From Escherichia coli (lineage in GTDB: Bacteria; Pseudomonadota; Gammaproteobacteria; Enterobacterales; Enterobacteriaceae): DNA of 64,000 nucleotides. Numbering within the stretch: position 1 is the first letter of the stretch; the number at the start of each line of letters is the position of its first letter. A program made the translations under genes and the position numbers. Under the pieces are notes generated by a model. It was not told the DNA's origin. It saw only the letters and a program-made list of their open reading frames with translations, and searched no databases. Of this stretch, positions 58,765-58,799 are shown piece after piece. The stretch is from assembly GCF_041886205.1 (NCBI RefSeq), contig NZ_CP169029.1; one strand, given 5' to 3'.

Positions 58765-58799
58765 TACTCCCCCCCAGTACCTGATACTCCCCCCCAGTA
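58765..58799. promoter_or_regulatory. two tandem RcnR operator sites (TACT-C7-AGTA) in the rcnA-rcnR divergent promoter
   Basis: tactcccccccagta at 58765-58779 and 58785-58799; matches published RcnR site pattern TACT-G6-N-AGTA. Confidence 0.7.

Follow-up and report, generated by a model that had tools for sequence, protein, structure and literature searches.

[quoted passage not shown] Both papers cite Iwig & Chivers 2009 (J Mol Biol 393:514) for the motif, and PMC7055735 further cites Blaha et al. 2011 (Biochimie 93:434). The unbroken G tract of the site has A-form character, and a passage of the same paper describes footprinting that points to minor-groove contacts of RcnR at the TACT/AGTA arms (PMC3902906). 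The RcnR tetramer blocks transcription of rcnA and rcnB and dissociates in the presence of Co(II) or Ni(II); the native rcnA promoter, PrcnA, is weak (PMC7105576). Judging by their titles, Blaha et al. 2011 describe repression of the two genes, rcnA and rcnR, by RcnR from a common operator, and Iwig & Chivers 2009 refer to wrapping.

Related systems differ from the E. coli K-12 operator to various extents. In Salmonella, an orthologous repressor acts on divergent rcnR and rcnA genes (rcnAPro), and a 2:1 tetramer:DNA model, i.e., two tetramers per two-site DNA, is given for a two-site probe (PMC5709419). The Salmonella diarizonae locus (L033) contains the same pair of C7 and A-C6 tracts as K-12, whereas the flanking and spacer sequences of the Salmonella operator are unlike those of the locus analysed here; in S. 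arizonae (L034), the tracts are present as the variants C6-T and A-C5. CsoR (e.g., from Streptomyces lividans) shares the protein family PF02583 with RcnR, and its operators, too, are pseudopalindromes built around G/C tracts, with A-form character and with AT-rich arms that contain GTA (PMC3902906). However, the type-2 operators of CsoR contain two short G/C tracts separated by other bases and bind two tetramers per site, whereas the type-1 site of RcnR contains one unbroken tract and binds a single tetramer (PMC3902906). The closest paralogue of RcnR, FrmR of the frmRAB system, likewise represses as a tetramer that its inducer releases, but its signal is formaldehyde and another operon is under its control.

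The operator pair and its flanking genes

The window (the whole stretch of E. coli DNA that was analysed, 64,000 nucleotides) contains exactly two copies of TACTCCCCCCCAGTA, located at 58765-58779 (site 1, rcnA-proximal) and 58785-58799 (site 2, rcnR-proximal). With the 5-bp spacer CCTGA (58780-58784), the region reads ...GATTC TACTCCCCCCCAGTA CCTGA TACTCCCCCCCAGTA GATTA..., and a repeat finder reports it as a 15-nt direct repeat in two copies with 100% identity and a start-to-start spacing of 20 bp. TACTCCCCCCCAGTA is the reverse complement of TACTGGGGGGGAGTA; TACT-CCCCCCC-AGTA on the plus strand thus corresponds to TACT-G6-G-AGTA on the rcnA strand, and both copies fit the published TACT-G6-N-AGTA motif with N = G. 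Both also display the 4-bp inverted repeat around an unbroken G/C tract. They are situated within the 120-bp gap (58728-58847) between the divergent genes rcnA and rcnR. The sequence-only reading had described two TACT-C7-AGTA copies at 58765-58799, 20 bp apart from centre to centre and lying between the divergent gene starts; the coordinates are exact, the repeat finder returns the same spacing, and the copies are flanked by the rcnA start codon (ATG at 58727, minus strand) and the start of rcnR (58848, plus strand).

A chance origin of the repeat pair is excluded. The generic pattern TACT-N7-AGTA is observed twice in the 64-kb window against an expectation of 0.24, and apart from the pair, a single match to the full 15-mer with at most three mismatches is present (at 38007, three mismatches), which is unrelated. 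Three C/G runs of at least 7 nt are present in the window, two of which are the operator tracts. An inverted repeat, I1 (58753-58768 / 58796-58811, 75% complementary), consists largely of the TACT/AGTA arms plus weak flanks and constitutes no separate feature.

The gene to the right, rcnR (58848-59120, plus strand), encodes a repressor of the CsoR/RcnR family with a length of 90 aa, the protein predicted to bind the sites. It is 100% identical to K-12 RcnR (WP_000019944.1), matches Pfam PF02583, and scores 197.3 bits against the RcnR equivalog model NF011613 of NCBIfam (cut-off 138). The ligand residues H3, C35, H60, and H64 are present, as is RASK at residue 14; the H-C-H-H metal-ligand motif defines RcnR (PMC11672702). 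On the other side, rcnA (57881-58727, minus strand) is the regulated target, a Ni/Co efflux gene of the NicO family that is frameshifted in this strain; its product matches NF007454 (433.6 bits) and PF03824 (NicO). Downstream of it, rcnB (57321-57659, minus strand) encodes an accessory periplasmic protein, as indicated by the RefSeq annotation and a match to Pfam PF11776. The gene order is a yehA-like fimbrial gene, rcnB, rcnA, rcnR, a TPP riboswitch, thiM, and thiD. The riboswitch (RF00059) is located at 59212-59308 on the plus strand, between rcnR and thiM (71.2 bits, E = 6.7e-14), in agreement with RefSeq.

A 321-bp query covering the locus matches 5,363 of 5,426 complete E. coli genomes, and the matches listed are all annotated as rcnA/rcnR. 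In strain wlxctx60 (NZ_AP045833.1), a single mismatch to the window is found over 3,321 bp, and RefSeq gives identical genes. The closest described system is the K-12 rcnA-rcnR operator, which resembles that of the window in locus, flanking genes, RcnR protein, arms, CCTGA spacer, 20-bp spacing, and site 1. It differs in having A at position 58789 (N = T on the rcnA strand) where the window has C (N = G), and K-12 rcnA does not contain the frameshift.

Taken at about 95% probability, the repeats at 58765-58799 are two type-1 operator sites of RcnR. The published motif, the K-12-identical RcnR, and the conserved orthologous loci all agree with this assignment, which the sequence-only reading had also made. 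The site pair is the RcnR operator already in the literature, an ordinary, textbook element, as the earlier remark that it was not novel had implied; the assignment accounts for the central part of the rcnA-rcnR intergenic region and adds little beyond correct annotation. Going by the passages that cite them, the published footprints coincide with the window sites rather than with another part of the region; this coincidence rests on secondary sources, and the footprinted operator sequence is presumably that of K-12.

Conservation and allelic variation

A protein-based scan for RcnR, in which the DNA motif was not presupposed, yielded 80 species-level loci across Enterobacterales (from the genera Escherichia, Citrobacter, Salmonella, Raoultella, Kosakonia, Rahnella, Hafnia, Erwinia, Edwardsiella, and Morganella and from one Vibrio). 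A divergent rcnA is located upstream of the rcnR homolog in 76 of the 80 loci, and the gap between the two genes in these is mostly 118-125 bp and less often 140-143 bp, 120 bp being the commonest length. The search pattern for the operator left the inner seven bases free in sequence but fixed at 7 nt in length. TACT-N7-AGTA occurs 144 times within the 200 bp upstream of rcnR, whereas the other 242 kb of the loci contain it 3 times, and the canonical pair TACT-N7-AGTA-N5-TACT-N7-AGTA (15+5+15) is found in 65 of the 80 species loci.

Within the canonical pairs, the inner segment of site 1 is C7 in 64-65 of 65 loci, while that of site 2 begins with A in 65/65, followed by C6 in 61-65/65. The near-invariance of C7 versus A-C6 means that the 'N' of the motif is fixed, and differently so in each site: read on the rcnA strand, the 65 species have G at this position in the rcnA-proximal site but T in the rcnR-proximal one. 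Beyond the RcnR motif itself, 58761 and 58784 are likewise invariant, each in 65/65 loci. The latter (column 19) is the last base of the spacer, always A, whereas columns 15-17 vary. None of the species representatives with canonical loci (65) contains the C7/C7 arrangement.

Most of the non-canonical loci have one site (Morganella and loci L060, L081, and L082) or a one-base length variant. A single TACT-C7-AGTA is present in Morganella, Erwinia psidii, Edwardsiella anguillarum, and one Enterobacter locus, and a single hybrid site in some species. In one Escherichia whittamii locus (L017, NZ_JACSQI010000017.1, ~1295-1437), the rcnR start codon abuts the reverse-strand rcnA coding sequence; the intergenic region and the 5' end of rcnA appear to be deleted there, or else the contig appears to be misassembled.

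Alignment of the window with an MG1655 derivative reveals a single difference across the 120-bp intergenic region, at 58789 in site 2. The K-12 site reads TACT-A-CCCCCC-AGTA; with C at 58789, the window therefore contains two identical C7 sites instead of C7 plus A-C6. The earlier description of a pair of C7 tracts is thus accurate for this strain but does not extend to the reference operator, and it is because the latter combines C7 with A-C6 that the published consensus is written G6-N.

Allele counts within E. coli were obtained with a 96-bp query, taking exact matches as listed; the identity band of at least 99% contains 14 records against 5 listed as exact, which makes band counts ambiguous. 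Among the matches listed, the exact window allele is found in five complete E. coli genomes (CRE1493, S1-CAM-02-A, MSB1_8G, MSB1_1A, and wlxctx60), while the K-12 allele is found in ~3,600, about two-thirds of the E. coli genomes. By these counts, the C7/C7 arrangement is a rare E. coli allele. Strains 2017.06.05CC and wlxctx60 both have C, not A, at the variant position of site 2. Among the other variants, site 1 contains C8 or C6, site 2 contains A-C7, or the pair reads C8/C7; the TACT and AGTA arms are unchanged in every E. coli sequence examined. E. coli N47 (L007, NZ_CM165890.1, 131-296) contains three units, TACT-C7-AGTA followed by two copies of TACT-A-C6-AGTA, which result from a duplication of the 20-bp unit. 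The single-site species and N47 thus set the number of units at 1 to 3. Binding of RcnR to site 2 of the window, and with it to the C7/C7 allele, should be retained, as site 1 already has G at the corresponding position. A natural allele with two identical sites could provide a test of the effect of this base on RcnR affinity or promoter strength.

Candidate promoters and alternative readings

Conservation outside the RcnR motif points to a candidate -10 hexamer of rcnA, TAGAAT (58761-58766, minus strand), which overlaps the AGTA arm of site 1. Read from 58766 to 58761, it matches the -10 consensus in 5/6 positions. Other genera have TAAAAT, TAGGAT, TATACT, or TATGAT at this position, i.e., the TAnnnT pattern is kept, and the T at 58761 on the rcnA strand (A on the plus strand, column -4) is one of the two bases outside the RcnR motif that are conserved in 65/65 loci. 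Exactly 17 bp upstream of TAGAAT lies GAGTAT (TAGTAT in K-12; 58784-58789, minus strand), whose columns 19 and 24 are invariant among the canonical loci. Read from 58789 to 58784, it may represent either the -35 position of rcnA or a second -10-like TAnnnT hexamer; the conserved T of TAGTAT is the variant base 58789 under both readings. For rcnR, a candidate extended -10 element, TGCTATGAT (TGnTATGAT; 58809-58817, plus strand), is suggested by conservation 9 bp downstream of site 2. In columns 44-52, T is found in 54/65 loci and G in 50/65, with T 44, A 46, and T 45; the equivalents in other genera include TGCTATAAT, TGGTATAAT, TGCTACACT, and TGTTATAGT. Just downstream of this element, near the predicted rcnR transcription start, E. 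coli strains vary at 58823-58825 (CATATT, CATGTT, CGTGTT).

A generic sigma-70 scan proposed TTGCCG-16-TATTAT (minus strand) and TTAACC-18-TACAAT (plus strand). Both candidates were rejected as promoters of rcnA and rcnR, since the -10 hexamer of each overlaps a start codon or lies directly next to it.

The arrangement suggests that -10 elements of the promoters overlap or flank the RcnR sites. If the assignments hold, both sites would be located within the core rcnA promoter, at roughly -45 to -11, and in the rcnR promoter site 2 would occupy approximately positions -39 to -25. Conservation predicts transcription of rcnA to begin close to 58754 with TAGAAT as the -10 hexamer, or close to 58777 with TAGTAT in that role, and transcription of rcnR to begin close to 58824. 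A mechanism can be proposed in which the steps at the operator follow the literature on the K-12 sequence. One metal-free RcnR tetramer would occupy each site, with the G/C tract providing A-form-like DNA and the protein contacting the TACT/AGTA arms; from this shared operator, RcnR would repress both divergent transcription units, rcnA(B) and rcnR. The site pair would cover the core rcnA promoter, whose candidate -10 hexamer TAGAAT reaches into an arm of site 1 and whose -35 position lies in site 2, and also the -35 region of the rcnR promoter with the extended -10 TGCTATGAT. With the operator pair covering both promoters, RcnR would occlude RNA polymerase at both, and the positions of the sites fit repression of the two genes by such occlusion. 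Binding of Ni(II) or Co(II) would lower the DNA affinity of RcnR and release transcription. In addition, Iwig and Chivers are said to have described in 2009 non-specific contacts of RcnR with roughly 50 bp of flanking DNA, plus wrapping.

The C at 58789 may not be neutral, since A occupies this position in 65/65 species and in about two-thirds of E. coli genomes. It is conceivable, though rather doubtful, that the 'N' base is not free because the T on the rcnA strand doubles as a base of the rcnA promoter, either the -12 T of the -10-like hexamer TAGTAT or the first base of the -35 element, and that the G of the window is a rare regulatory mutation. The G allele would then alter the strength of the rcnA promoter or the relative occupancy of the two sites by RcnR, and the frameshift loss of rcnA would have come later, within the lineage in which the allele arose.

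In a rival reading, the poly-C/G tracts would serve chiefly as slippage-prone homopolymers, and changes in their length or in the number of 20-bp units would switch the spacing of the rcnA/rcnR promoters and make expression phase-variable, with RcnR binding playing a secondary role. The C8 and C6 forms of site 1, A-C7 in site 2, C8/C7, and the three-unit operator of N47 among complete E. coli genomes are in line with this, as are the single hybrid site of some species and the location of a tract in the putative spacer of the rcnA promoter. On the other hand, a 7-nt run is short for efficient slippage, the tract length is invariant in 64-65 of the 65 canonical loci (a set chosen for 7-nt inner segments), only a few of the 80 loci differ in tract length, and the single-base length variants could be homopolymer sequencing errors. 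One exact allele is moreover common to about two-thirds of the E. coli genomes, and phase variation is considered very improbable compared with a pair of RcnR operator sites.

Still less credible is a different main regulator acting on the repeats, e.g., the paralogue FrmR or Fur. The window protein does score 76.5 bits against the model of FrmR, the closest paralogue of RcnR, but this is below the FrmR equivalog cut-off of 133 bits; the published RcnR motif matches exactly, and the sites accompany rcnR orthologues in different genera. A Fur-box-like sequence is found close by, at 58722-58746 (14/19 to GATAATGATAATCATTATC, both strands), overlapping the start codon of rcnA and the 5' leader. 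The repeats lie outside this match, which is only moderately unusual, with ~10 matches of at least 14/19 in the window. Koch et al. reportedly described in 2007 an influence of Fur and iron on rcnA. Equally far-fetched would be a chance duplication or a DNA/RNA hairpin without any protein-binding role: the TACT/AGTA arms are complementary and a weak stem can be drawn, yet the pattern exceeds chance expectation and is conserved across genera. The hairpin and structured-RNA reading was rejected, as the single-stranded DNA fold is no better than that of shuffled sequences (z = -1.4; 23 of 200 shuffles fold equally well) and no Rfam family overlaps the operator sites.

The frameshift in rcnA

Besides the variant operator, the locus contains a +1 frameshift in rcnA due to an extra G (GG at 58592-58593 versus a single G in K-12). 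The context is TTTGGATGG in the window and TTTGATGG in K-12. The frameshift leads to a stop after 49 codons, and removal of one G restores an RcnA of 281 aa. Two of 5,360 complete E. coli genomes contain the exact 66-bp context, wlxctx60 and 2017.06.05CC, and RefSeq marks rcnA as 'frameshifted' (pseudogene) in both. The extra G could indicate a true pseudogene or an assembly error. Intact rcnA is found in two other genomes with the operator allele of the window, so that the operator variant predates pseudogenisation or is independent of it.

Judging from the frameshifted gene, the Ni/Co efflux pump is probably non-functional in this strain, and part of the regulatory output is lost with the pseudogene. 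The circuit would then still autoregulate rcnR, an activity presumably kept in this strain, but probably without a full-length pump. An inactive pump predicts nickel/cobalt sensitivity of the strain despite its intact sensor. The His-rich cytoplasmic loop of RcnA (~58240-58340) is longer here (HGHDYEHHHHHHDHEHHQDHEHHLDHGHHHHHEH), the repaired protein having 281 aa versus 274 aa in K-12; the difference is a length polymorphism in a repetitive CAT/CAC region.
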